Assembly: GCF_000787575.1 (NCBI RefSeq)
Contig: NW_012236516.1
Coordinates: 470,535-484,978 of the forward strand
Reading direction: 5' to 3'
Length of the DNA stretch: 14,444 bases
Source of the DNA: Acytostelium subglobosum
Lineage: Eukaryota
Part shown: positions 341-14,444 of the stretch, piece after piece
Layout of the letters: each line of letters begins with the position of its first letter
Position numbering within the stretch: the stretch's first letter is position 1
Notes under the pieces: model-generated
Told to the model about the DNA's origin: nothing
What the model saw: the letters and a program-made list of their open reading frames with translations, nothing else
Databases searched by the model: none
Made by a program: the position numbers and the translations under genes

Positions 341-1542
341 TTATTCGGATGTTACAGTGGCCACCCTCTTGTAGACGAGATACGAGATGAGTAGGAATAG
401 TACCACGATCGCAGTGTCAATGAATGCTGTGGACTGTCTGGTGATCGATGTGATCCTGGTGGGTGGTGGCCTCACTACGTTTGGCTTTGTCTCGACAACG
501 ACTGCTGCCGCCACCGCTGCCGCCTGGTCAGGTGCTCCCTGGACTTGTGCCTCAGCAACAACGACATCTTCGTCATGGGCAACAGCATTAGTTCTATGTA
601 CAAGCGTCGCCTGTTGCTGCTGTTGCTCTGGGTTGGACTCTATTGATGTTGTTGAAGTTGTTGTAGATGTAGTTGTTGGTTCTACTTGTGTATGTAATGA
701 TGATGAGGATGATGAAGGGTGCGCTGTATCTACGTGAGTGTCGGGTGAATGAACATGGGCATGTTGAGTGCCGTCCATGCTTGGGTCATCCTCGTCTGTT
801 ATCTTATCCTCTGTTGGTATAAGATGACTTGCTGCTGCTGGTGTCGCTGTTGCCGTTGTTGAAGTTGTAGTTGTCGTAGTAGTTGTTGATGTTGTTGCAT
901 TGGTATTTGATTGATTTGAAGTAGGCTGTACATTTGGCAATGCAGTCCTATTGTGAACGCCACACTTTGCGCACTTCCAATCCAAGCTCCTCTTTGCCAA
1001 CACTATTCTCTCCTCCTTTGTATAGTCGAGTGAGCCCACGGCACCCTTGCCCTCTGTCATCATAAAGCCAATGAGAGCAACCAACACTGTACGAACTATT
1101 GATCGGTTAATTGATGAATGAGTTAGTGATGTATATCGATACCAATGATGACCATTCATATACATACTGCTCCAAGATGGCATCCATGTCTCTGGATGAT
1201 GAGCTGAGATTGACAAACATATCTTTACATCAACGCTAAATCTTCCATTGGGCTGTGCATATGCTTATAAGTTAGTATTCATTCAATATCATATCAACTA
1301 TATGAGGTACTCACAGTTAATAAGACAATGTTGGGTGGCTTGAAGGGATAGTCTGGCGGCAGTAATATCCTGCCATGATAGATGCCACCTTCAAACTCTG
1401 TATCCTGTGCACCTCTAATTGTAAAGTGCCATTCAAACATATTATCCTCAAGTGGGAATGCCGTGTAATCTGGTGAGGAATCCTGCTTGATCTCCTGAGT
1501 CTCACGCATAATCCTCTTTAATGCAGAGTTGTTTGTATTCAT
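341..1542 (-). CDS. UBC6: Ubiquitin-conjugating enzyme E2 J1/UBC6-type, ER tail-anchored E2. Three exons on the minus strand: 1315..1542, 1168..1252, 341..1095. About 355 aa.
   Basis: Exon 1 (MNTNNSALKRIMRETQEIKQ...EWHFTIRGAQDTEFEGGIYHGRILLPPDYPFKPPNIVLLT) is a UBC fold with the HPN-less Ubc6 signature. Intron 1 runs GTGAGT...CAG (plus 1253..1314). Exon 2 is PNGRFSVDVKICLSISAHHPETWMPSWS, matching the Ubc6/UBE2J catalytic Cys region (RLCLS...HPDTWNPAWS). Intron 2 (plus 1096..1167) has a GTATGT donor, a CACTAAC branch and a AATAG acceptor. Exon 3 continues IRTVLVALIGFMMTEGKGAVGSLDYTKEERIVLAKRSLDWKCAKCG, matching UBE2J1 SLDYTPEERRALAKKS-DF-C-GCG. After a Thr/Ser/Gln-rich linker it ends in a C-terminal hydrophobic tail anchor, AIVVLFLLISYLVY. 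ATG is the complement of 1540-1542; the stop is the complement of 341-343. Confidence 0.85.
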
Positions 1543-4014: not shown

Positions 4015-4619
4015 ATGGTATGATTCAGGTCAACTAGATTGTCATCAGACTCAATCGATAGGATTAGGATTGGATTAAGGATAGGATGCGACATTCATAC
4101 ATGTTGGATATGTGATGGATGGATTGGGATATATCTCGCGCGCACGATACGAACAGCAGACAGATGACAGAGTGAAGATGTAAAGGATACATTGGCTAAT
4201 CAATTCATATCATGTTATAACATCAAACAATAGGCCAAGAGAACCAAGAAAGTCGGAATTGTTGGAAAGTACGGTACGAGATACGGTGCCTCTTTGAGAA
4301 AGCAGGTTAAGAAGATGGAGATTACCCAACACGCCACCTACACCTGCTCTTTCTGTGGAAAGGTAAAGATCGCGATCATCACATATGATGACACAACTGG
4401 CCTCCCCATCACCAATGGCATAACTCTAACACATCTTAATCAACACCAATCATCAATCAAATCAAACTAAAACAGGATGCTGTCAGAAGAGCTTCCGTTG
4501 GTATCTGGAGCTGCAGTGGATGCAGAAAGACTTTGGCTGGAGGTGCCTGGACCATGAGCACTGCCGCTGGTGCCACCGTCAGATCTACCATCCGTCGTCT
4601 TCGTGAGTTGAACGCTTAA
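4015..4619 (+). CDS. RPL37A: 60S ribosomal protein eL43 (L37a). Three exons: 4015..4017 (ATG only), 4234..4362, 4476..4619. 91 aa.
   Basis: ATG|GTATGA at 4015-4023, then ...CAATAG|GCCAAGAGAACCAAG gives [44 protein letters not shown]. Intron 2 runs GTAAAG...AAAACAG. Exon 3 is [47 protein letters not shown]. The match to L37a is near-identical, including the C4 zinc ribbon CSFCGK...CSGC. An ATG-only first exon is a common ribosomal-protein gene layout. Confidence 0.92.
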
Positions 4620-4699: not shown

Positions 4700-5020
4700 G
4701 AATACCATCCTCTCTGGTTGTCCTTCTTCTTTCTTCCTTCCTGTCCATCCTTCCTTGTCCATCCATCCTTCAGTCATTCAACCTCCAGTTGGCAACTTGT
4801 ATTGTCAAAGTGCTGGAGTTTGTTTGCTTCGAAATGGACTATTTCCAACTTTGTAGCATGTGTGTGTGTGTGTCCTTTGCGAACCACTTTCCCCTTTCAA
4901 TTTCCCATTCAATGAACACCAACAAACAGATACACACACACTACACTTACTTACTCACTTATACAACTCACACTTACACATACTTACACTTACTACTTAC
5001 TTATATACTTATATTGGATA
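4700..5020. repeat. Low-complexity block between RPL37A and the next gene. It comprises a pyrimidine (CT/CCTT) tract at about 4705-4790, a (GT)7 run at 4858-4874 and an ACTTAC/CACA-rich stretch at 4915-5015.
   Basis: Read directly: ccttcttctttcttccttcctgtccatccttccttgtccatccatccttc, then atgtgtgtgtgtgtgtcc, then acacacacactacacttacttactcacttatacaactcacacttacacatacttacacttactacttacttat. Confidence 0.8.
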
Positions 5021-5029
5021 CGATGAGGA

Positions 5030-7784
5030 ATGTCTTGGAAACATGAATTGGAATCATTGGTCCGTGTGGCATCAATGCCTACTTCAAGATTGAAGAGTTT
5101 GGCACTTTCATTAAGATCACATATTGAGAAGAGTACATCTGTAAGTCAAGACAATCATGACAGATGTGAATGTCCAAATGATGGATCAATATAACATTCA
5201 GAGATCACTCACTCACTTCATATCATTGTATGCAGTATGTGAATTACTATATTGGCTCAGTGAATGAGTGTCTGAGACATTGCAATCCAGAACATATACT
5301 CAACTCTCTATATGCGATCGATGCCATAATGAGAGATCTGAGGCATTCTCCACAGACACAAATGTATGATACATTGATGATTTATTGAATGAGTGAGTGA
5401 TGGACACAAGGATGCTGACCACACATCTCCTCATTCTTTACATAGATACACGATGATGGAAGGTGAGTTGACAAATGTATTACTTGCCAATGAGAAAAAG
5501 ATATTGGAGACTATTCCCCAGGATTATTGTGTATGTTATATGGAAGTGTTAGATGGAATGGAACTCCAATCATTCATTAATCCTGGTAATCAATCAAATA
5601 ATAGACAAAGTTCATTAAGTTATTGGATATCTGGGTGAATAAGAAGTTGTTCCCGATGGAGTTAAATAGAAAGTGGATCAATAGGATCATGACAGACTTG
5701 GATGTGGAGTTGACCGAACCTACATCATCATCATCAGTGTCCAATCACCAACACAATCAAGACACAATCATGGCTAGGGCCATGACTAGGACTACAACTA
5801 CAACCACCTCGACCGCGACAAATGTTTCATCAATGATGGGCGACAGTCACAAAAGAAAGTTAAGCTCATCTGATGAGGATGAGGATGACAATCCATTGGA
5901 GTTTCTGATGGAAGACGATAGTGATGATAGTCAAGATGATAATCCAGATGTCGTGCGTGTTGGAATGCTGGCCAAATCCAGAGCAAAGAAAAGAATAAGG
6001 AAGACTGGCCTCACAAAACAACGGTCATCCGACCTCCTCGACATGTCCAGTCTCAACAACGTCCGTAACATGTCATTACATACCTCCCTACTCGACCTTC
6101 CCAATGAGATCATCAGCAAGATCCTCCTTGATCTCGATGTCCTGGAAATACTCCGCATCTCATTCGTGTCAAGGTATGTCATGCCGTGTCGTGTCAGCTG
6201 ATGGCGCGCCAACTAACATCAACCAATCAACAACCTAGGTTCTTCAATGAGTTCATTCGATATTGTACATTCTGGAGAGTGTTGAGCTTCAACAATGTGA
6301 TCATATCAGAGTTGTGTCTAAACACAACGATCAAGTCTTATGGACATTTGGTGGTCAAGTTGGATCTGTCATTCTGCAACTACGTCTCACACAGCTCAAT
6401 CAAGACCATTGTCAACAATTGCACACAACTCCAATCAGTGTCCATGTGCAGATGTCCACTGTCCGACGACGACATTGTCGAAGTGCTCAAACTGAAACAA
6501 CTTCGCAAGTTGAACGTATCACAATCCAACTACTCATTCTACATCCTTGACTGCATTCTCAACCACCGCGGTATCACAAACCTCAACATAGCGTATGTCC
6601 ATGGATACTGGAACATCACCATGGTCATACTCATTCTAACTCTACCCCACCATCACCAGTTGCAGCCATATGTTGTTGAATAGATTGTTTATGAAGTGCA
6701 CAGATAAGCTGCCGGCTGGATTGAGGAAGCTCAACATTGATTGCTACTGCTCCAACTTCTTTAGTTCGGTGGTCGGCGAGGCCGTCGAACAAATAATCAC
6801 AAACAATCAAGAGACATTGAAGATGGTCACACTCCACCATGCCCTGTCAATCGAGAAGATACCCAGAGGTGTCAAGCTGAGGACCACCAACCTCTGGAAG
6901 TACGTCAAGTTCAACGACTATGCCTCCACCAAGGAGGCCTTGCATGGCATCAAGAAGAAAGTGTTGGACAGGAGATATCACAATGGAAACACATCCATCT
7001 ACGTAAGCTCAATCAATCATTCATTCAATAATCAATCACTTACTCACTCACCCAATCAATCAATCCAACTTGTTTAGCAAGCATCAGAGGAGGGCAAGGT
7101 ACAACTGTTACAGTTGTTGATCAATGCTCGAGCGGACCATTCAATATGTAATTATTATGGAATATCTCCAATCATGGTATCCAAGGATATAACAACTACC
7201 AAGGTCTGGATATCGAGTGGAATCAAACCAAACTTACAAATAGAGAGTGAGTAGGATGTGGACTTGAACGCACATGGCCATGTCTAACTCATCCATCAAT
7301 CAATCACAGAGGAGTTCTTGGCAGTCATACCAATTTTGGAGAAGTATTACAAGTATTTAAAGTCCAACATACAAGAGCATCCATCAATCAATGAAGTACA
7401 ATCATCTGATGTCAATCTCATACTGACATTACTAAAGAATGAACAAAAGTATGCATTCAAGAGTGATGTCATCAGTCTTGCTCGTATACTATTGGCATCA
7501 TTCTTGAAGATACCATCATTGTTAAAGACGTATGTATCCTCCTCTACCTTCACACATAACGGCATCAATCATATGACTAACATAACAACAATGGTAATTA
7601 ATATAGTATGATCAATGGAGATAATCTACATCACAAACAACAACAACAACAACAACCAAACATTACCACACGATCATTGGTATTTAGTACTATTGGCAAT
7701 GATATATTCTTCCAGACATTGATGCCATATCTAAAGAAGGCACAACAGAAGATAGTTCTGTTGGACCTCCTCGAGTTGGAGTAA
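5030..7784 (+). CDS. Large multi-exon gene encoding an N-terminal CID (RNA polymerase II CTD-interacting, Nrd1/SCAF8/Pcf11-type) domain fused in frame to an F-box and Cys-containing LRR/ankyrin-like repeats. Proposed exons: 5030..5140, 5236..5363, 5446..5530, 5605..6173, 6239..6592, 6660..7002, 7078..7246, 7310..7529, 7607..7784. About 718 aa.
   Basis: Exons 1-4 give MSWKHELESLVRVASMPTSRLKSLALSLRSHIEKSTS|YVNYYIGSVNECLRHCNPEHILNSLYAIDAIMRDLRHSPQTQ|IYTMMEGELTNVLLANEKKILETIPQDYC|TKFIKLLDIWVNKKLFPMELNRKWINRIM... This aligns with the SCAF8/Nrd1 CID core SVEKFIQKCKPEYKVPGLYVIDSIVRQSRHQ...KIVRVLNLWQKNNVF. The same exon 4 frame runs through a poly-Thr linker and an acidic patch. A basic KSRAKKRIRK stretch follows, then a canonical F-box, LLDLPNEIISKILLDLDVLEILRISFVSR|FFNEFIRYCTFWRVL, with no stop. 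Exon 5 carries FBXL-type repeats (LDLSFCNYVSHSSIKTIVNNCTQLQSVSMCRCPLSDDDIVEVLKLKQLRKLNVS). Later exons are ankyrin-like (KVQLLQLLINARADHSICNYYGISPIMV). All junctions use GTAAGT/GTATGT/GTGAGT donors, TAAC branch motifs and AG acceptors, and every exon phase closes. Stop TAA at 7782-7784. The exon 6-9 boundaries and the single-gene interpretation are less certain than the CID and F-box exons themselves. Confidence 0.5.
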
Positions 7785-7878
7785 AGTACATTCTCTTCCA
7801 AGGTCAATTCATTCAGTCATTCGACCGGACATTGTCATTTAACAACGATCACGATCGCACATGGCATTGGCTAATTCC

Positions 7879-7922
7879 ATCACTTATTCATTCACTCATT
7901 CACTCATTCATTCATTCGTTCA
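7879..7922. repeat. CATTCA/CTCATTCA tandem low-complexity repeat.
   Basis: cattcactcattcactcattcattcattcgttcatc read directly. It belongs to the same repeat family seen in many introns of this window. Confidence 0.8.
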
Positions 7923-8313
7923 TCAAACCACGTGTGTCTCTTTAGCCACGTTGAGCGTTAACTATGGAAGCCCCTTATCCAAAGTCACACAACCAACAAG
8001 GCTCTTGCCCGGGCTTGTGATCTCCATCGTAGAACAAACCAGGTTCCCTCACATGTGATTTGACGATCGACATCAAGATCAACAACAGCAACCTTTTGTA
8101 TTATCATCATGGAACTTGGACGTGTCGGGGAATTGTTTGGATTAGATTCACACACATCCATGTCCCCACCCAGATCACTCTTTTGGCTAAAGATACCTAA
8201 TACCAGGGCTGCATCCTGATTTTCTAAAAATGAACGTCAAGGAATTGAAGGTGAGTTAGTGAGTTGGGGGAGCGAAGGAGGAGGTGAAGGGGTCTATTGA
8301 AAATTTGATGGCG

Positions 8314-8575: not shown

Positions 8576-10716
8576 ATGACAGAAGTATTCAATAATACAA
8601 TCACTGGATCATCCAATGATATTTGGTACAATTATCTGTCAGTTGGAGATAAAGATATTACAGGCAATTTAATTGTTGCCAATAATAATAACAATAATAT
8701 AAATAATAATAATTATAATAATATGTTAAACAAGTCATTGGACATGTTTGACGCATTCACAACAAATGCAAATGGTGGCTTGACATCACAGGCTGGCAGC
8801 ACAAAGACATCGATGGGCTTTAATCAGCCACCATCGTTCACAATGTACAACACTGGCGGATCACACTCCAATTCGCCAATCCCAATGCTAAACAACGACG
8901 GCACTACAAGCCCCACCTACTACCTCAACCTCAGCATGGGCGTCCCCGTCAACACTGTGACGGTCGACCCAGAGACAGTGCAGGAAATACCAATCCCAAT
9001 CCCACAGTTCACCAGCGAGCCACCCATCACAACATCGGCAGTGCCCTCGTCGTACTGTTCGCCATCGCCATCGAGCTCACATTCGAGCCCAATTCAAGAC
9101 TTCCAATATATGTCGCCACAATCTCCACAGCAACAACAGCAGCAACAACAGATGTCACCACAGCAACATCAACAACAACAATACTCCTCCTCTCCTCTTC
9201 AAGTCATCGAGACAACATACACACCAGACTATAACGTCGTCTTCAACTATGTACAAAAGCACACGCCCAAGTCCGACATGGTCCCATTGAACAATCCATT
9301 CCAATTGACCAATCAGCAACAAGTTGCCATTCCAATCCAGCAGCAACATCAACAGCAACCACAACAACAACAACAGAGCAACTCATTCAACAGGTATGTG
9401 TATCCCATGACATTGATTGACTTGTTACTAACATCTTGGCAACACCAGCAATGAATATGATGATATGCTCGACAAGCCATTCTCAAAGGACTACTTCTTC
9501 AATCAACTAAAGAGCGCAGTACCAGCCTTTGTTGAACCACAGGAGAATGCAATGAATGATGATCAAGCGTCAAACGACGACAGCAGCTCTTCACCAGAGT
9601 CTGATGGCGACTTGGCACTGTGCTCAAAGAAGAGAGGCCGCGAGGAGGTCATCGACCTGTCTGGCGCCACCATCCTCAACAAGGATCAGGTGCTCAAGCT
9701 GACATCTCGCGAGATCGAGGAGTACGTCTCCAAGCTGAAGCAGAACCACATCCTGTCGCCCAGCCAAGAGAAGGAGCTGAAAAAGCAACGCCGTCTAATC
9801 AAGAACCGCGAGTACGCCTCGCAGTCGCGCTCCCGTCGCAAGGTGTACGTCGAGTCGATCGAGTCCAAGCTCCAGCGTTCGGCCAATGAGAACGCCTCGA
9901 TCAAGAGCCAGCTCACCACCATGAAGGATGAGAACCGCGAGCTCAAGAAGCAACTATTCACTCTAACCCAAACCCTCAAGTCAAACCCATCACTAGCCGA
10001 AGCATTTGGTAAGGTCTTTTCGATAGGCAATGCCGGCTCTAAGAAGACAGCCGCCACTGTTTCCCTTTTTGTAAGTATCCAACGACCTCTCCACCTCATC
10101 CATTGTCCTCCTCCAATGAGCGCGGTACTAATACAAGTCCTCTTCCCAACCAATCAATTAGGTATTCTGTGTTCTATTTACATTAACCTTCCTGTTCCCC
10201 GTCCAACCAACCGCACATTTCCAACAACCATCAGGGTATGTACACCAACTCCTCACTCACTCATTCCAATCAATCAATCAGCGACTAACATTAATATCAC
10301 ACAGCACCGCATTCGTTCACCGTAACCTCTTGGACTTTGATATCAGCGAGCCAGTCAAAGTGACCTACGTCGACCGTACTCTACAACTAAAGAATCAAAT
10401 ACTGGATGAGACTAAAGCATTTGTATCCAACCTACTTGGCAATATCAACGGACTGTCAACAAACGATAAGAAGAAATACGAAGCCGACTACCTAAAGCAT
10501 ATCTCGGCCAAGTCCTCAGCCATGATGAGCAACTCCACTGCCCTCCACGTTCCATCCTCTCCAACAACACTATCTACCAGTGCTGCGCCCACGACCAGCA
10601 GATTAAGCACACAACGTCCAACTAAGAGACTGAGGACACACGTAATCGAGGAGCCATCTTCCCCACTGACATGCTCGTCTCCACTTTCCTCCTCAGACAT
10701 GTCTGATGATGAATGA
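8576..10716 (+). CDS. ATF6/CREB3/plant bZIP28-like membrane-tethered bZIP transcription factor. Four exons: 8576..9393, 9449..10070, 10162..10235, 10305..10716. About 641 aa.
   Basis: Exon 1 is N-, Q- and S-rich low complexity (a putative activation region) and ends AG|GTATGTG. The intron has a TTACTAACA branch and a CACCAG acceptor. Exon 2 carries ...LTSREIEEYVSKLKQNHILSPSQEKELKKQRRLIKNREYASQSRSRRKVYVESIESKLQRSANENASIKSQLTTMKDENRELKKQLFTL. This matches the ATF6 basic region [32 protein letters not shown] and bZIP28 KRRARLVRNRESAQLSRQRKKHYVEELE, followed by a leucine zipper. Exon 2 ends ...KKTAATVSLF|GTAAGT. Exon 3 encodes VFCVLFTLTFLFPVQP, a TM helix containing Pro. Exon 4 begins GTAFVHRNLLDFD, where RNLL resembles the S1P site RxxL/RHLL placed about 18 aa after the TM. 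A Ser/Thr-rich luminal tail follows. Stop TGA at 10714-10716. Confidence 0.75.
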
Positions 10717-10763: not shown

Positions 10764-12011
10764 TTAGAGTCTTTCGATTACTATTGCCGAGGCACCTCCA
10801 CCTCCATTGCAGATGCCTGCCACACCTATCTTGCCACCTCTCTTGTGGAGAATGTGTGTGAGGGTAGTGAGGATACGTGCGCCTGATGCACCAAGTGGAT
10901 GACCAAGTGCCACTGCACCTCCATTGACATTGACCTTGTCCAAGTTGATATTGAGCAGTTGTCCATTGGCAATTGGTACGCAAGAGAATGCTTCATTGAT
11001 CTCAAAGTAGTCGACTTGATCGATGCTGATGCCAGAGTTGGCGAGTGCCTTGGGGATGGCCAATGCGGGAGCCATGGGGAACTCGATTGGAGCACGTTCG
11101 GCATCGGCGAAACCAATGATCCTGGCCAATGGTTTGATTCCAAGTTCCTTGGCCTTGGACTCTGCCATAAGTATGATAGTGGCAGCGCCATCATTCAACT
11201 TGCTAGAGTTGGCAGGTGTCAGCACCCCATCCTTTGTGAATGATGGTTTGAGGTTTGGTATCTTCTCAAACTTTGCTCTCTTTGGTTCCTCGTCCTCCTT
11301 CACTATCAAGTCTGGGCCACCCTTCTGAGGTACTGGTACAGGTACAATCTCATCCACAAACGCTCCATTCTTCTGAGCTTCAATAGCTCTCGTGTAGCTC
11401 CTCACACAATACTCATCATTCTCCTGTCTTGTAATGTTCATCTTCTTTGAAGTGTCCTCTCCACATACTCCCTAACATGTCAACATCCATGTTAGTGATC
11501 AATAAAACAATCAATGAAGTTGAATCATACATACCATTGCAATGTCATCATATGCATCTGATAGGCCATCACGGACGAGTCCATCGATCATTGATACATT
11601 GCCATACTTGGCACCATATCTAAGTTTGTCGACGTAGTAGGGTACATTGGACATGGACTCGAATCCACCTGCAACAATCACTTTTGATTGTCCAAGTAGA
11701 ATTGATTGAGCTCCATACATCACACTCTTCATACCAGAAGAGCAGACCTTATTAACTGTTGTACATATTACACTATGAGGTAGACCTGCACCCAATGCTG
11801 CTTGACGTGCAGGTGCCTGTCCAAGATTGGCAGAGATCACATTACCAATGATTGCTTCATCCACTTGTTTAGGATCCAGACCAATACTATTCAATGCATG
11901 TTGGATTGACAATGATTGAAGTTTTGGTCCAGGAACAGTTGACAAAGTGCCTCCCAGTGCACCAATAGGTGTGCGATTGGCTGCGACAATAACAACCTGG
12001 TCTCCAATCAT
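10764..12011 (-). CDS. ERG10: Acetyl-CoA C-acetyltransferase (acetoacetyl-CoA thiolase). Two exons on the minus strand: 11535..12011 and 10764..11471. About 394 aa.
   Basis: Exon 1 is MIGDQVVIVAANRTPIGALGGTLS...CTTVNKVCSSGMKSVMYGAQSILLG...DAYDDIAM, with the thiolase N-terminal active-site Cys motif NKVCSSG. The intron has a GTATGT donor, a TCACTAAC branch and a TGTTAG acceptor (plus 11472..11534). Exon 2 is GVCGEDTSKKMNITRQENDEYCVRSY...NGGAVALGHPLGASGARILTTLTHILHKRGGKIGVAGICNGGGGASAIVIERL*, with the thiolase C-terminal motifs GHPLGASG and CNGGG. The start is the complement of 12009-12011 and the stop is the complement of 10764-10766. No obvious mitochondrial presequence, so a cytosolic ERG10 type. 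Confidence 0.92.
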
Positions 12012-12564: not shown

Positions 12565-13365
12565 TTATGGCTTGAGAGTGACGAGCTCATTCTCCTCGTG
12601 CATCTCCTTGATAATGTCAAAGCCACCGACTAGACTGCCATTGATGTAGAGTTGTGGATAGGTCTTCCAGTTGGAGTACTCCTTCAGACCCTCACGAACG
12701 GTGGGGTCCGACAGGATGTTGAACGAGTCGAATGTGAAGCCATCCTTGTTGAGAATGGCAACGGTCTTGCTGCTGAAGCCGCATTGTGGTGCATCGGGTG
12801 TGCCCTTCATAAAGAGCATGACTGGTGCTTTGTTGACCAGTGCGTGTAGACGTTCCTTTAGATTGGCCTTCTCCTTCTCCTCCTGTTGCTTGATGCGATC
12901 GAGTACCTCTTGAGATGGTGCTTCCTGTGCGTCAACCACAACGTCTGTGGCCTTTGATGAGAACTGCAATGACTTCATTGTGAGTGCTGATGGGTCTGCG
13001 CCAAGAACACTCTCTACAACAGCTTTATCCTTTATAAAGAAGTATGATGGTACTGACTTGATGTCATACTTTAATGATATCTCAGTTGCTTTCTCTGCTT
13101 CGATCTGTTTGTATCATTGTAATTGATTGATTGGTTGATTGATTGAATGATTGAGTGAGTAATGCAACTCTATATGTATCATCATCTTGCTACATACATT
13201 GGCAAACTTAAGCTTTGGACATTGAGTGGAGAGTTGTTGGACGATGGCATTCATTGATGCACATGGCTTTGACCAATCAGCCCAAAAGTTCAAGACAACG
13301 TACTTGTTGCTAGTCAGGAAGTCATTGAGCTCTGCCAATGTAGTAATAACTTGAGGTGAAACCAT
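12565..13365 (-). CDS. GRX3: Monothiol glutaredoxin of Grx3/Grx4/PICOT type, an N-terminal thioredoxin-like domain plus a C-terminal CGFS glutaredoxin domain. Two exons on the minus strand: 13198..13365 and 12565..13104. About 235 aa.
   Basis: Exon 1 is MVSPQVITTLAELNDFLTSNKYVVLNFWADWSKPCASMNAIVQQLSTQCPKLKFAN. The WAxWxxPC Trx-like motif with a single Cys matches yeast Grx3 FHTSWAEPCKAL. The intron has a GTATGT donor and a CAAACAG acceptor (plus 13105..13197). Exon 2 is IEAEKATEISLKYDIKSVPSYFFIKDKAVVESVLGADPSALTMKSLQFSSKATDVVVDAQEAPSQEVLDRIKQ...LVNKAPVMLFMKGTPDAPQCGFSSKTVAILNKDGFTFDSFNILSDPTVREGLKEYSNWKTYPQLYINGSLVGGFDIIKEM...*. It contains the CGFS active site and the WPTxPQLYI motif. Confidence 0.88.
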
Positions 13366-13921
13366 TTTGTATTTATATATTTATATATTTATGTATGTTA
13401 TATATGTTTAATTGTTTGAATAAATGAATGTACTTCATTCAAAGTGTTCGTCAATACCAACTTTTGAGAGATTCAAACACTTTTGTTGACAACTAAACAT
13501 GATGATGTTGGGGTCAAAGGTGGAATAACATTCCATTGACAGTCCTCCAACAAGCAGTAGTATTTAATTATACATCGACTTCAACCTTGACAACTCTGTC
13601 TCTTTTATGTTCATGCAATCACCCAACACTTGACATTTGATTAACAAACCAATACATTATTGTGATATGAGCAGGTCCAACAGCCTCAACAACATGAGTT
13701 TGTAGTAATGATATGTATACTAGCCAGTGTATGTGTAGTTGATCAAGTGCGTCAGATTGTGAATGAATGAGAGTAGTGCTGACGAGGCCTCCTTCGAACC
13801 CCATCACTCTCATTCACCCAAGCCCACTCCATCAGCAACATAATGCAGTCCCTCCACGTGCTTCATGTGTTCATTGTTAGATATACATAGAGATAATCAA
13901 ACAATAGTAATAATAGTAATA
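13366..13921. promoter_or_regulatory. Divergent intergenic promoter shared by GRX3 (minus strand) and the DUF393/DCC oxidoreductase gene (plus strand).
   Basis: About 555 bp lie between the ATG at 13365 (minus strand) and the ATG at 13922 (plus strand). The region is AT-rich, with tatttatatatttatatatttatg at 13371-13395. Confidence 0.4.
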
Positions 13922-14444
13922 ATGTTATCGTCATCCTATTCTCCTGCCAGTCCACCTCGTTCCATTCTTCTGTTTGATGGAGTGTGCAACTTCTGTGAAG
14001 GCGTCGTTCAATTCATTAGCCAGAGGGATACAGAGAGACGCTTCCATTTCCAAGCACTGCAGACTGAGAAAGGACATGAGATACTAGACTACTATCACCT
14101 ACCCAAGGATCTATCAACTGTCGTACTAATCGAAGAGGAGACTGGTACCTACTATCTCAAATCAACCGCCATTCTAAGAGTACTCTACTACCTCAAAGTA
14201 AGTCATCCTCCCCTCTCTATCTCTCGTTCACTCACTTGTCTAACTCAATCAATCAATCAATCAAACATACTAGTATCCATATCCAATGCTCTATCCATTC
14301 ATTTATATACCTCAATTCATTAGAGACTATTGTTATGCTACGTTTGCTCAGTATCGTTACAAGTTGTTTGGAAAGAAGGATACAGATCGTTGTATTGTCA
14401 ACAATCAATTGAAGACAATGTTCATCGATTGGAAGAGTCCATTC
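13922..14444 (+). CDS. DUF393/DCC-family putative thiol-disulfide oxidoreductase (YuxK-like), truncated by the window end. Exon 1 is 13922..14197 (possibly extending to about 14238). A second exon begins at about 14326 and runs off the window.
   Basis: MLSSSYSPASPPRSILLFDGVCNFCEGVVQFISQRDTERRFHFQALQTEKGHEILDYYHLPKDLSTVVLIEEETGTYYLKSTAILRVLYYLK matches the DCC family signature (LFDGxCxLCxxxVxFxxxRD...FxFxALQS...VLLVE.G....S.A.L.I.R.L), with a CxxC at CNFC. A GTAAGT donor sits at 14198. The downstream frame 14325..14444, DYCYATFAQYRYKLFGKKDTDRCIVNNQLKTMFIDWKSPF, matches the family C-terminus (..IARNRFKWFGKKDQC). The intron-exon junction in between is ambiguous. The first in-frame ATG at 13865 would add 19 aa, but 13922 was chosen because the A-rich context and the family N-terminus fit better. 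Confidence 0.6.

Follow-up and report, generated by a model that had tools for sequence, protein, structure and literature searches.

The locus at 5030-7784 on the + strand of the window (the whole 14,444-nucleotide stretch of Acytostelium subglobosum DNA analyzed here) raises the question of whether a single gene can join a Pol II CTD-interacting domain (CID) to an F-box and leucine-rich repeat (LRR) module, and what its product would do. To our knowledge, the partners that characterized CIDs bring to Pol II always belong to the RNA-processing or termination machinery. Ubiquitin ligases known to act on Pol II arrive otherwise, through WW domains, RING proteins, Elongin/Cul5, or ARMC5/Cul3. 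Rebuilt independently, the gene comprises nine exons with a stop codon at 7782-7784 and encodes 718 aa, the product length originally predicted; all eight introns are GT..AG and measure 63-95 nt. Exon 1 (5030-5140) encodes CID helices 1-2 (aa 1-37), and the start motif of the protein, M-S/G-W-K/R-x-E-L, is kept in aligned orthologs. The splice model, a PDB match, and alignments place the CID core, with its LYAIDAIMRDLRH motif, in exon 2 (5236-5363), and alignments place CID helices 5-6, with an invariant EKKI..P motif, in exon 3 (5446-5530). Exon 4 (5605-6173) is the bridging exon: a single open frame runs from the final CID helices (5605-5691) through a Thr-rich, acidic, and basic linker (5692-6084) into the F-box, of which it encodes the first half (6088-6173). 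The splice model puts exons 5-9 at 6239-6592, 6660-7002, 7078-7246, 7310-7529, and 7607-7784. A reading of exon 3 with a 19-nt intron (donor 5586) breaks the frame and was rejected; the 74-nt intron at 5531-5604 keeps the frame and falls at the same codon in three other genomes.

The original prediction held that the frame of the bridging exon runs from the CID to the F-box with no stop, and the rebuilt exon agrees: it is stop-free from TKFIKLLDIWVNKKLF in the last CID helix through LPNEIISKILLDLDVLEILRISFVSR in the F-box, while the other two frames of this span hold 9 and 19 stops. When the span was shuffled, the frame stayed open in 0 of 20000 trials for the window and in 0-1 of 20000 across four genomes. 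In each of the four genomic loci examined (the window and L001, L002, and L003), no stop interrupts the bridging exon, and the intron between the third CID exon and the bridging exon has an identical codon position. Once two published models had been corrected, the window, Cavenderia, and Heterostelium agreed in all three CID introns. Two spliced mRNA contigs from a relative of Polysphondylium violaceum (L005 and L006) contain the CID and the F-box in the same uninterrupted ORF. A poly(A) stretch closes contig L005, from which a 65-nt intron of the P. violaceum genome is absent; read from an upstream in-frame ATG, its ORF is 764 aa long, with CID helix 8 at about aa 194 and LPNE at about aa 321.

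These observations bear on a concern raised from the outset, that the two halves might be adjacent genes. Under this alternative, the locus would encode a short protein with the CID and, from the ATG at 5785, a second one with the F-box and LRRs, and the open linker would be coincidental, or the F-box isoform alone would be made. An in-frame ATG is indeed present at 5785, but the internal Met position is not conserved in alignments, and four genomes keep the bridging frame free of stops even though the linker sequence diverges. Moreover, the last CID helices and the F-box lie in one exon, so only a terminator within the linker could part them, and the spliced mRNA contigs of the relative span both domains. 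We consider the two-product alternative very unlikely. An F-box-only isoform might also be made from the ATG at 5785, but none of the observations requires it. With HMMs, the PDB profile, the fold, orthologs, and the mRNA of a relative in agreement on a single reading frame linking the two modules, we conclude that 5030-7784 is almost certainly one dictyostelid gene encoding a CID, linker, F-box, LRRs, ankyrin repeats, and a helical tail, with the fusion conserved.

At its N-terminus the protein carries a canonical CTD-interacting domain like those of SCAF8, Seb1, and Nrd1. In an HMM search of the 718-aa product, the CID and the F-box both scored above their curated cutoffs; Pfam CID PF04818 matched aa 20-127 with 28.2 bits (cutoff 23.9, E 2.4e-6), and the isolated domain scored 31.3 bits against the same cutoff. 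All five aligned family members matched the Pfam CID (best E 3.4e-9), and the CID of T. lacteum fell slightly under the PF04818 cutoff (21.6 bits versus 23.9). Compared with PDB sequences by phmmer, the N-terminal 152 aa matched the SCAF8 CID (E 1.5e-7, residues 6-130), and the family profile matched only CIDs in the PDB, most strongly those of SCAF8 (2.1e-11), SCAF4 (2.9e-9), and Seb1 (5.7e-7), followed by Nrd1 (2e-6) and Pcf11 and Rtt103 (both about 5e-5). Evidence on the fold comes from an AF2 model of the CID of the T. lacteum ortholog (pLDDT 94), for which the alignment included the window exons; the window CID shares 36-42% identity with the rest of alignment A3. CIDs made up all but one of the 45 best PDB matches of this model in Foldseek, and its match to SCAF4/8 had a target-normalized TM of 0.78-0.84 and an rmsd of 2.3-3.0 A. 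The CID assignment, made originally from the likeness of the sequence to the SCAF8, Nrd1, and Pcf11 CIDs, is borne out by Pfam, the PDB profile, and the fold match. A superhelical fold is common to the CID, VHS, and ENTH domains, which could favor a generic VHS/ENTH-type helical domain of membrane traffic in place of a CID. However, the significant matches are CIDs, and no VHS or ENTH family or structure appeared among the Pfam matches, the PDB profile matches, or the best 50 Foldseek matches, making a VHS/ENTH-type domain extremely improbable.

Residues that contact the CTD in known structures are largely retained. Y63 (5311-5313) and D66 (5320-5322), encoded in exon 2 together with R70 (5332-5334), are invariant in alignments A1 and A3 and kept in T. 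lacteum; in the alignment they correspond to the Tyr found stacked on CTD Tyr1 in every CID-CTD structure and to the conserved Asp (PMC5382271). In exon 4, K113 (5617-5619) aligns with SCAF8 Arg112, which forms a salt bridge with pSer2 (PMC3215212), and all six species have K or R there. S19 and K22, both in exon 1, are equivalent to Seb1 S22 and K25 (PMC5382271) and to the pSer5-contacting Ser and Lys of SCAF4/8, and are retained in most species. The T. lacteum positions equivalent to S19, K22, and K110 (5608-5610 in the window) are not conserved. Judged from these alignments, the conserved contact residues make recruitment by the phospho-CTD more plausible. We note that a CID fold is no guarantee of CTD binding, because the Nrd1 CID also binds CTD-mimic Sen1 NIM peptides (PDB titles 6o3w-y, 6gc3) and Ctk3 has a solved "non-canonical CID" (PDB 5ce7).

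The linker between the CID and the F-box is about 130 aa long and disordered. Its only element found in most orthologs is a basic motif (KRK, KKRK, RKRK, or KKRT, with QKRKL in Heterostelium), which in the window protein reads HKRKL (5848-5862) and looks like a candidate nuclear localization signal. The F-box that follows (aa 270-315, 6088-6290, interrupted by the intron at 6174-6238) matched Pfam F-box PF00646 at aa 270-311 with 32.1 bits (cutoff 20.5, E 9.5e-8), a match that takes in positions 1-42 of the 43 in the profile, and F-box-like PF12937 with 29.4 bits (cutoff 24.3). Directly behind it, in exons 5-6, lie Cys-containing LRRs (aa ~316-497, 6291-6903). By sequence, the LRRs of the window protein gave a weak Pfam match (LRR_Zer-1, E 0.021). 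A model of the ortholog from F-box to C-terminus (pLDDT 77 overall, with a modest 64-70 in the F-box part) placed an LRR solenoid of seven to eight strand-helix repeats right after the F-box. The best Foldseek matches of this model were FBXL2 (6o60), FBXL17 (6w66, 8uah), SKP2, COI1, D3, and TIR1, with KDM2A also among the matches; the matched receptors are SKP1-bound. The order first proposed, an F-box and then FBXL-type Cys-LRRs, is consistent with both the Pfam F-box and the LRR solenoid of the ortholog model.

Downstream of the LRRs is a probable ankyrin repeat region (aa ~498-564, 6904-7179). Ankyrin HMMs scored below their cutoffs in the window protein (Ank_2, 15.2 bits, cutoff 27.3; Ank, 13.5 bits, cutoff 21.1), orthologs have stronger precomputed Ank hits, and the corresponding region of the ortholog model matched DARPins and ankyrins. 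In the model, the C-terminal half as a whole is an FBXL-type LRR with ankyrin repeats after it. A conserved C-terminal region (aa ~585-718, 7240-7781) is supported by alignments A1 and A5 and is helical in the model. The original prediction did not include the ankyrin repeats or this helical region. We detected no RRM or other RNA-binding domain in the window protein with Pfam.

The architecture is maintained across much of the dictyostelids. Orthologs with the same domain order, each carrying both domains, were found in four other species, from Cavenderia, Heterostelium, Polysphondylium violaceum, and Tieghemostelium, and dictyostelid groups 1-3 retain the fusion, as does the P. violaceum lineage. 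The best match of the window protein in the searched collection was from Heterostelium album (51% identity), and an RPL37ae neighbor is common to the window gene and the Cavenderia and Heterostelium loci. The P. violaceum clade has a Ser-rich insertion of about 100 aa within a CID loop. Homolog searches detected no ortholog in D. discoideum or D. purpureum, so the function appears to be dispensable in part of the dictyostelids. A search with the F-box-to-C-terminus profile returned no further ortholog, only generic ankyrin/LRR proteins, and a word-indexed search with CID alignment A3 gave no matches, probably as the Ser-rich insertion in two of its members filled the candidate list. These homolog searches found no protein with both a CID and an F-box outside the dictyostelids.

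What the protein does can be approached through its parts. The F-box would bind Skp1 and thereby enter an SCF (Skp1-Cul1-Rbx1) ubiquitin ligase, and the CID, as in SCAF4/8 and Seb1, would dock this ligase on heptad repeats of the largest Pol II subunit that are phosphorylated at Ser2/Ser5. The LRR-ankyrin module would then pick the ubiquitylation target, either Rpb1 itself or a factor traveling with elongating Pol II. We put forward, as a proposal about evenly balanced between right and wrong, that the protein is a nuclear SCF substrate receptor docked by its CID on the phospho-CTD, with the LRR-ankyrin module choosing the target. The broader suggestion, that in dictyostelids outside group 4 an SCF receptor reads the CTD phospho-code through a canonical CID and ubiquitylates Rpb1 or CTD-bound factors co-transcriptionally, is more tentative.

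Two other functions have to be weighed. In the first, the CID would read a CTD-like phosphopeptide elsewhere, such as a Tyr-Ser-Pro-type degron or "NIM," and serve as a second substrate-binding module rather than as a Pol II dock. Phosphodegrons are the ligands that F-box receptors typically read, the pSer5-contact positions differ among orthologs, and the Nrd1 CID has been crystallized with Sen1 NIM peptides (6o3w-y, 6gc3). Nonetheless, every ortholog keeps the residues of generic CTD recognition (Tyr, Asp, and the basic residue that binds pSer2), and the nearest profile relatives are bona fide CTD readers, and for these reasons we regard this function as unlikely. In the second, the protein would bind both the CTD and Skp1 yet not be a degradative SCF receptor, acting instead in a non-SCF Skp1 complex, as a CTD-bound scaffold, or as a short-lived SCF substrate. 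Many F-box proteins have SCF-independent roles, and several work without Cul1; in this protein, the C-terminal ankyrin/helical region has no assigned partner. Some F-box proteins may also be substrates themselves (PMC9485057). The layout, in which the F-box leads directly into an FBXL-type LRR solenoid, is nonetheless that of a canonical receptor, and the structures that it matches best are those of active SCF receptors, which leaves the non-degradative role improbable in our judgment.

Three sets of known systems come closest to the proposed SCF receptor. SCAF8, SCAF4, Seb1, and Nrd1 have the same N-terminal family and fold and give the best profile and fold matches to the window-family CID; they have in common with it the Tyr and Asp as well as the basic residue that binds pSer2, and the pSer5-contact Ser and Lys are present in most species. 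These proteins, which pair the CID with an RRM, function in termination or anti-termination, whereas the window protein combines a CID with F-box, LRR, and ankyrin regions. Like the window protein, SKP2, FBXL2, and FBXL17 have an F-box followed directly by Cys-containing LRRs, but in the window protein the LRRs lead into ankyrin repeats and a family-specific helical tail, and we found no orthology to any named FBXL. KDM2A/B (FBXL11/10) are F-box proteins in which CxxC/PHD chromatin readers act as localization modules, and as in the window protein, the targeting domain lies N-terminal to the F-box. The CID may be a comparable localization module, although the N-terminal module of KDM2A/B is JmjC/CxxC/PHD and that of the window protein is a CID. 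Rsp5/NEDD4 (WW-HECT) is an E3 ligase recruited by the phospho-CTD. Yeast Asr1 (RING; PMC12270679) and ARMC5-CUL3, which acts on POLR2A (PMC10789052), likewise illustrate a ligase brought to Pol II by the phosphorylated CTD, the logic proposed here. Asr1, Rsp5/NEDD4, and ARMC5-CUL3 have no CID or F-box, while the window protein has a canonical CID as its putative CTD reader and would belong to the cullin-1 SCF class.

The architecture had been flagged as undescribed, and among the papers searched none combined an F-box with a CID, RPR, or CTD-interacting domain. If the proposed function is correct, it would tie cullin-RING ubiquitylation directly to a CID-type CTD reader, a connection not known before. 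A CID-F-box receptor would be a natural experiment in which a cullin-RING ligase reads the CTD code directly, and would offer a simple, genetically encoded handle on what is ubiquitylated on the elongating polymerase. The idea should be testable, since an ortholog is present in Heterostelium (Polysphondylium pallidum), which is genetically tractable.

An environmental intronless protein from an ENA metagenome (P0012/P0018), which has an F-box, LRRs, and ankyrin repeats, is CID-like by eye at its N-terminus (GVYVFDAICNTL; KLWIQKLLNHWWKHKYF), but a CID was not supported by Pfam, by an hhalign comparison with A3 (probability 1.6%), or by a phmmer search of the PDB, and we did not count it as a CID-F-box protein. 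The orthologs are labeled in databases as "hypothetical," "F-box domain-containing," or "ankyrin repeat-containing." Their precomputed Pfam lists lack the CID, which is partly why the architecture escaped notice. Additionally, three public gene models in the family are wrong, one with a retained intron, one with a skipped F-box exon, and one with a fusion to RPL28e.

The gene under study (5030-7784, + strand) was rebuilt from raw sequence as nine exons (5030-5140, 5236-5363, 5446-5530, 5605-6173, 6239-6592, 6660-7002, 7078-7246, 7310-7529, and 7607-7784) with eight GT..AG introns (63-95 nt) between them. This independent rebuild gave a product of 718 aa, the length originally predicted, and its best protein match is from Heterostelium album (51% identity). 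Short GTATGT/GTAAGT introns and Thr/Gln/Asn homopolymeric runs, together with the best protein matches, mark the window as dictyostelid. Intronic and intergenic DNA at 4700-5000, 7020-7080, and 7870-7930 is dense in short imperfect microsatellite-like repeats, with units of TCAA/TCAT (e.g., tcaatcaatcaatca, cattcattcactcattc), CA runs, and CTTA/CTTAC.

Evidence from several genomes and from transcripts supports a one-gene architecture. Exon 4 (5605-6173) encodes in a single frame the last helices of the Pol II CTD-interacting domain (CID), a Thr-rich/acidic/basic linker of 131 aa, and the first 28 F-box residues. As originally predicted, this frame lacks a stop across the CID-to-F-box span; the other two frames hold 9 and 19 stops, and the frame was open in none of 20,000 shuffles. 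At the loci of the Cavenderia, Heterostelium, and Polysphondylium violaceum orthologs, the exon that opens with the last CID helix likewise continues stop-free into LPNE...FVSR, with the linker poorly conserved. Just one linker element recurs across most orthologs: a K-R/K-K motif (HKRKL, 5848-5862), a putative nuclear localisation signal. The intron directly 5' of the bridging exon occupies an identical codon position in all four genomes, and the three CID introns agree in position and phase among the window, Cavenderia, and Heterostelium once the published models are corrected.

L005 (2501 nt) and L006 (2415 nt), JGI contigs drawn from separate samples, carry a P. violaceum-like gene as one unbroken open reading frame. 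Both join ...GATCATTGT|AAAAAGTTA... exactly at a 65-nt GT..AG intron of the P. violaceum genome and lack three more genomic gaps of 54-70 nt each, and L005 ends in AATAAA...poly(A). They are spliced mRNA contigs, polyadenylated in the case of L005. From an upstream in-frame ATG, the L005 frame encodes 764 aa; CID helix 8 falls near residue 194 and the F-box near 321. This ATG (MSSWRNKMFAAV...), 7 codons 5' of the called start, is the true start. The transcript check proposed with the original prediction was in this way carried out in a relative of P. violaceum rather than in A. subglobosum. It is very unlikely that the CID and F-box halves are separate genes, since the exon 4 frame is open, the orthologs are fused, and the spliced mRNA of a relative spans both domains. 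Alternatively, an F-box-only isoform might begin at the ATG at 5785. The contigs (L005 1-2501, L006 1-2415) are environmental, from samples 3300028160 and 3300028164, and come from a close relative of P. violaceum; being spliced mRNA, they indicate that these samples apparently contain eukaryotic transcripts.

The fusion is retained in five other dictyostelid sequences, namely Cavenderia fasciculata DFA_03334, H. album PPL_08088, P. violaceum CYY_005965, the JGI sequence near P. violaceum, and Tieghemostelium lacteum KYR01564.1. All share the order CID, linker, F-box, LRR, ankyrin, and conserved tail (T. lacteum was compared separately from the main alignment). Orthology is further supported by local synteny. 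The intron-split gene for ribosomal protein L37ae (4015-4618, + strand; stop 4616-4618) is the immediate upstream neighbour in the window and in Cavenderia; in Heterostelium it is also upstream, separated by a single gene (HSP70). Public gene models are wrong at the Cavenderia (L001 6001-8669), Heterostelium (L002 6001-10442), and P. violaceum (L003 6001-9843) loci: DFA_03334 retains an in-frame intron within the CID, PPL_08088 misses the F-box exon and begins with a spurious extension of ~190 aa, and CYY_005965 merges the gene with RPL28e, which lies downstream. In the P. violaceum clade, a CID loop between the LYIIDAIIR and EKKILE helices also carries ~100 aa of inserted low-complexity sequence rich in Ser and Pro (L003 ~6240-6580; aa ~75-170 of clade proteins P0003/P0004). 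This insertion is coding rather than intronic because it is present in mature mRNA.

Three families exceeded curated Pfam thresholds in the window protein: CID reached 28.2 bits against a cutoff of 23.9 (aa 20-127), F-box 32.1 bits against 20.5 (aa 270-311), and F-box-like 29.4 bits against 24.3. In a single-sequence search of PDB sequences, the N-terminal 152 aa matched the SCAF8 CID (E 1.5e-7, residues 6-130), followed by SCAF4, Pcf11, Seb1, and Nrd1. Five corrected N-terminal domains, each of which matched Pfam CID singly, were combined into a profile whose only significant matches among all PDB sequences were CIDs (SCAF8 2.1e-11; SCAF4 2.9e-9; Seb1 5.7e-7; Nrd1 ~2e-6; Pcf11 and Rtt103 ~5e-5). 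For the T. lacteum domain, AlphaFold2 with an alignment that included the window exons gave a model (mean pLDDT 94, pTM 0.88) that matched CIDs in all but one of its best 45 Foldseek PDB hits. SCAF4 and SCAF8 came first (target-normalised TM 0.78-0.84, rmsd 2.3-3.0 A), and no VHS or ENTH structures were among the 50 matches listed. Pfam, PDB profile, and Foldseek all support the CID originally proposed.

Residues that contact the CTD are also kept. Y63 aligns to the Tyr found stacked on CTD Tyr1 in every CID-CTD structure, and D66 to a conserved Asp (PMC5382271); neither varies in the family alignments, and both are present in T. lacteum. K113 aligns to SCAF8 Arg112, which salt-bridges pSer2 and is Met in Pcf11 (PMC3215212), and is K or R in six of six species. 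S19 and K22, aligned to the pSer5-contacting Ser/Lys of Nrd1, Seb1, and SCAF4/8, are present in most species, not in T. lacteum. The domain therefore belongs with the canonical CIDs of SCAF8, Seb1, and Nrd1 and is not a degenerate version.

Modelling of the T. lacteum ortholog from F-box to C-terminus (pLDDT 77 overall, 80-95 across the LRR part) predicts an F-box of three helices followed by 7-8 strand-helix LRRs, ankyrin-like helix pairs, and a helical tail. Its top PDB matches comprised SKP1-bound receptors (FBXL2, FBXL17, SKP2, COI1, D3, TIR1, and KDM2A), ZYG11B, which is a CRL2 receptor with LRRs, and structures of ankyrins and DARPins. Ankyrin matches in the window protein (aa 498-564) were under the Pfam threshold. 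The F-box score and the ortholog model together bear out the predicted F-box followed by FBXL-type LRRs, and the combined data show a single polypeptide in which a canonical CID is joined to an FBXL-type receptor.

The protein resembles an F-box receptor carrying a CTD-reader module, with the closest layout in KDM2A/B, F-box/LRR proteins with chromatin readers at the N-terminus. The nearest analogues of its proposed function are Rsp5/NEDD4, which uses WW domains, Asr1, a RING ligase brought by phospho-CTD (PMC12270679), and ARMC5-CUL3 (PMC10789052). From domain content, an SCF ligase docked on phospho-CTD is plausible: the F-box would bind Skp1, the CID would dock the SCF on CTD carrying Ser2P/Ser5P, and the target, either Rpb1 or a CTD-associated factor, would be chosen by the LRR-ankyrin module. 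The CID might instead recognise a CTD-like degron of another protein, in the way that Sen1 NIMs are read by the CID of Nrd1, or the protein might have a non-degradative or SCF-independent role.

The phylogenetic range of the SCF-receptor-like fusion appears narrow. When 1.84 billion representative proteins were searched by HMMER with a profile running from CID to F-box, only 16 matches reached E <= 1e-3. Among these, both parts occurred only in dictyostelid orthologs, and the remainder were stand-alone CIDs (P0006, P0014) or F-box-only proteins. Within their limited sensitivity, the three homolog searches that gave hits recovered nothing from D. discoideum or D. purpureum, suggesting that the gene was lost or diverged extremely in dictyostelid group 4; D. 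discoideum is apparently without the gene. Precomputed Pfam lists for the orthologs lack the CID, and their names are generic. Full-text literature searching found no paper joining F-box with CID, RPR, or CTD-interacting domain, and a Dictyostelium F-box inventory mentions neither CID nor CTD (PMC9485057). Within these limits the architecture is undescribed, as first suggested, although the sequences are public. An intronless environmental eukaryotic gene on an ENA contig (L004 4234-6642, ERZ27254846; proteins P0012/P0018) encodes F-box, LRR, and ankyrin; its N-terminal region resembles a CID by eye, but Pfam, hhalign, and PDB phmmer gave this no statistical support. The gene might represent a very distant relative of the family from outside the dictyostelids.

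Elsewhere in the window, a Gln/Asn-rich gene at 8576-10716 (+ strand) with a bZIP domain (Pfam bZIP_1 E 7.6e-10, ORF 9465-10325) is probably a multi-exon bZIP transcription factor. A long reading frame at 341-1216 (- strand), Thr/Ser/Gln-rich and of low complexity, includes the segment LDYTKEERIVLAKRSLDWKCAKCG and a C-terminal hydrophobic tail; it recalls the C-terminal portion of tail-anchored E2 enzymes of the Ubc6/UBE2J type, and the exon by itself has no Pfam match. Ordinary housekeeping genes encode an acetyl-CoA acetyltransferase (10764-12011, - strand; thiolase N and C domains in two exons), a glutaredoxin (12565-12978, - strand), and a DCC1-like thiol-disulfide oxidoreductase (13865-14323, + strand).
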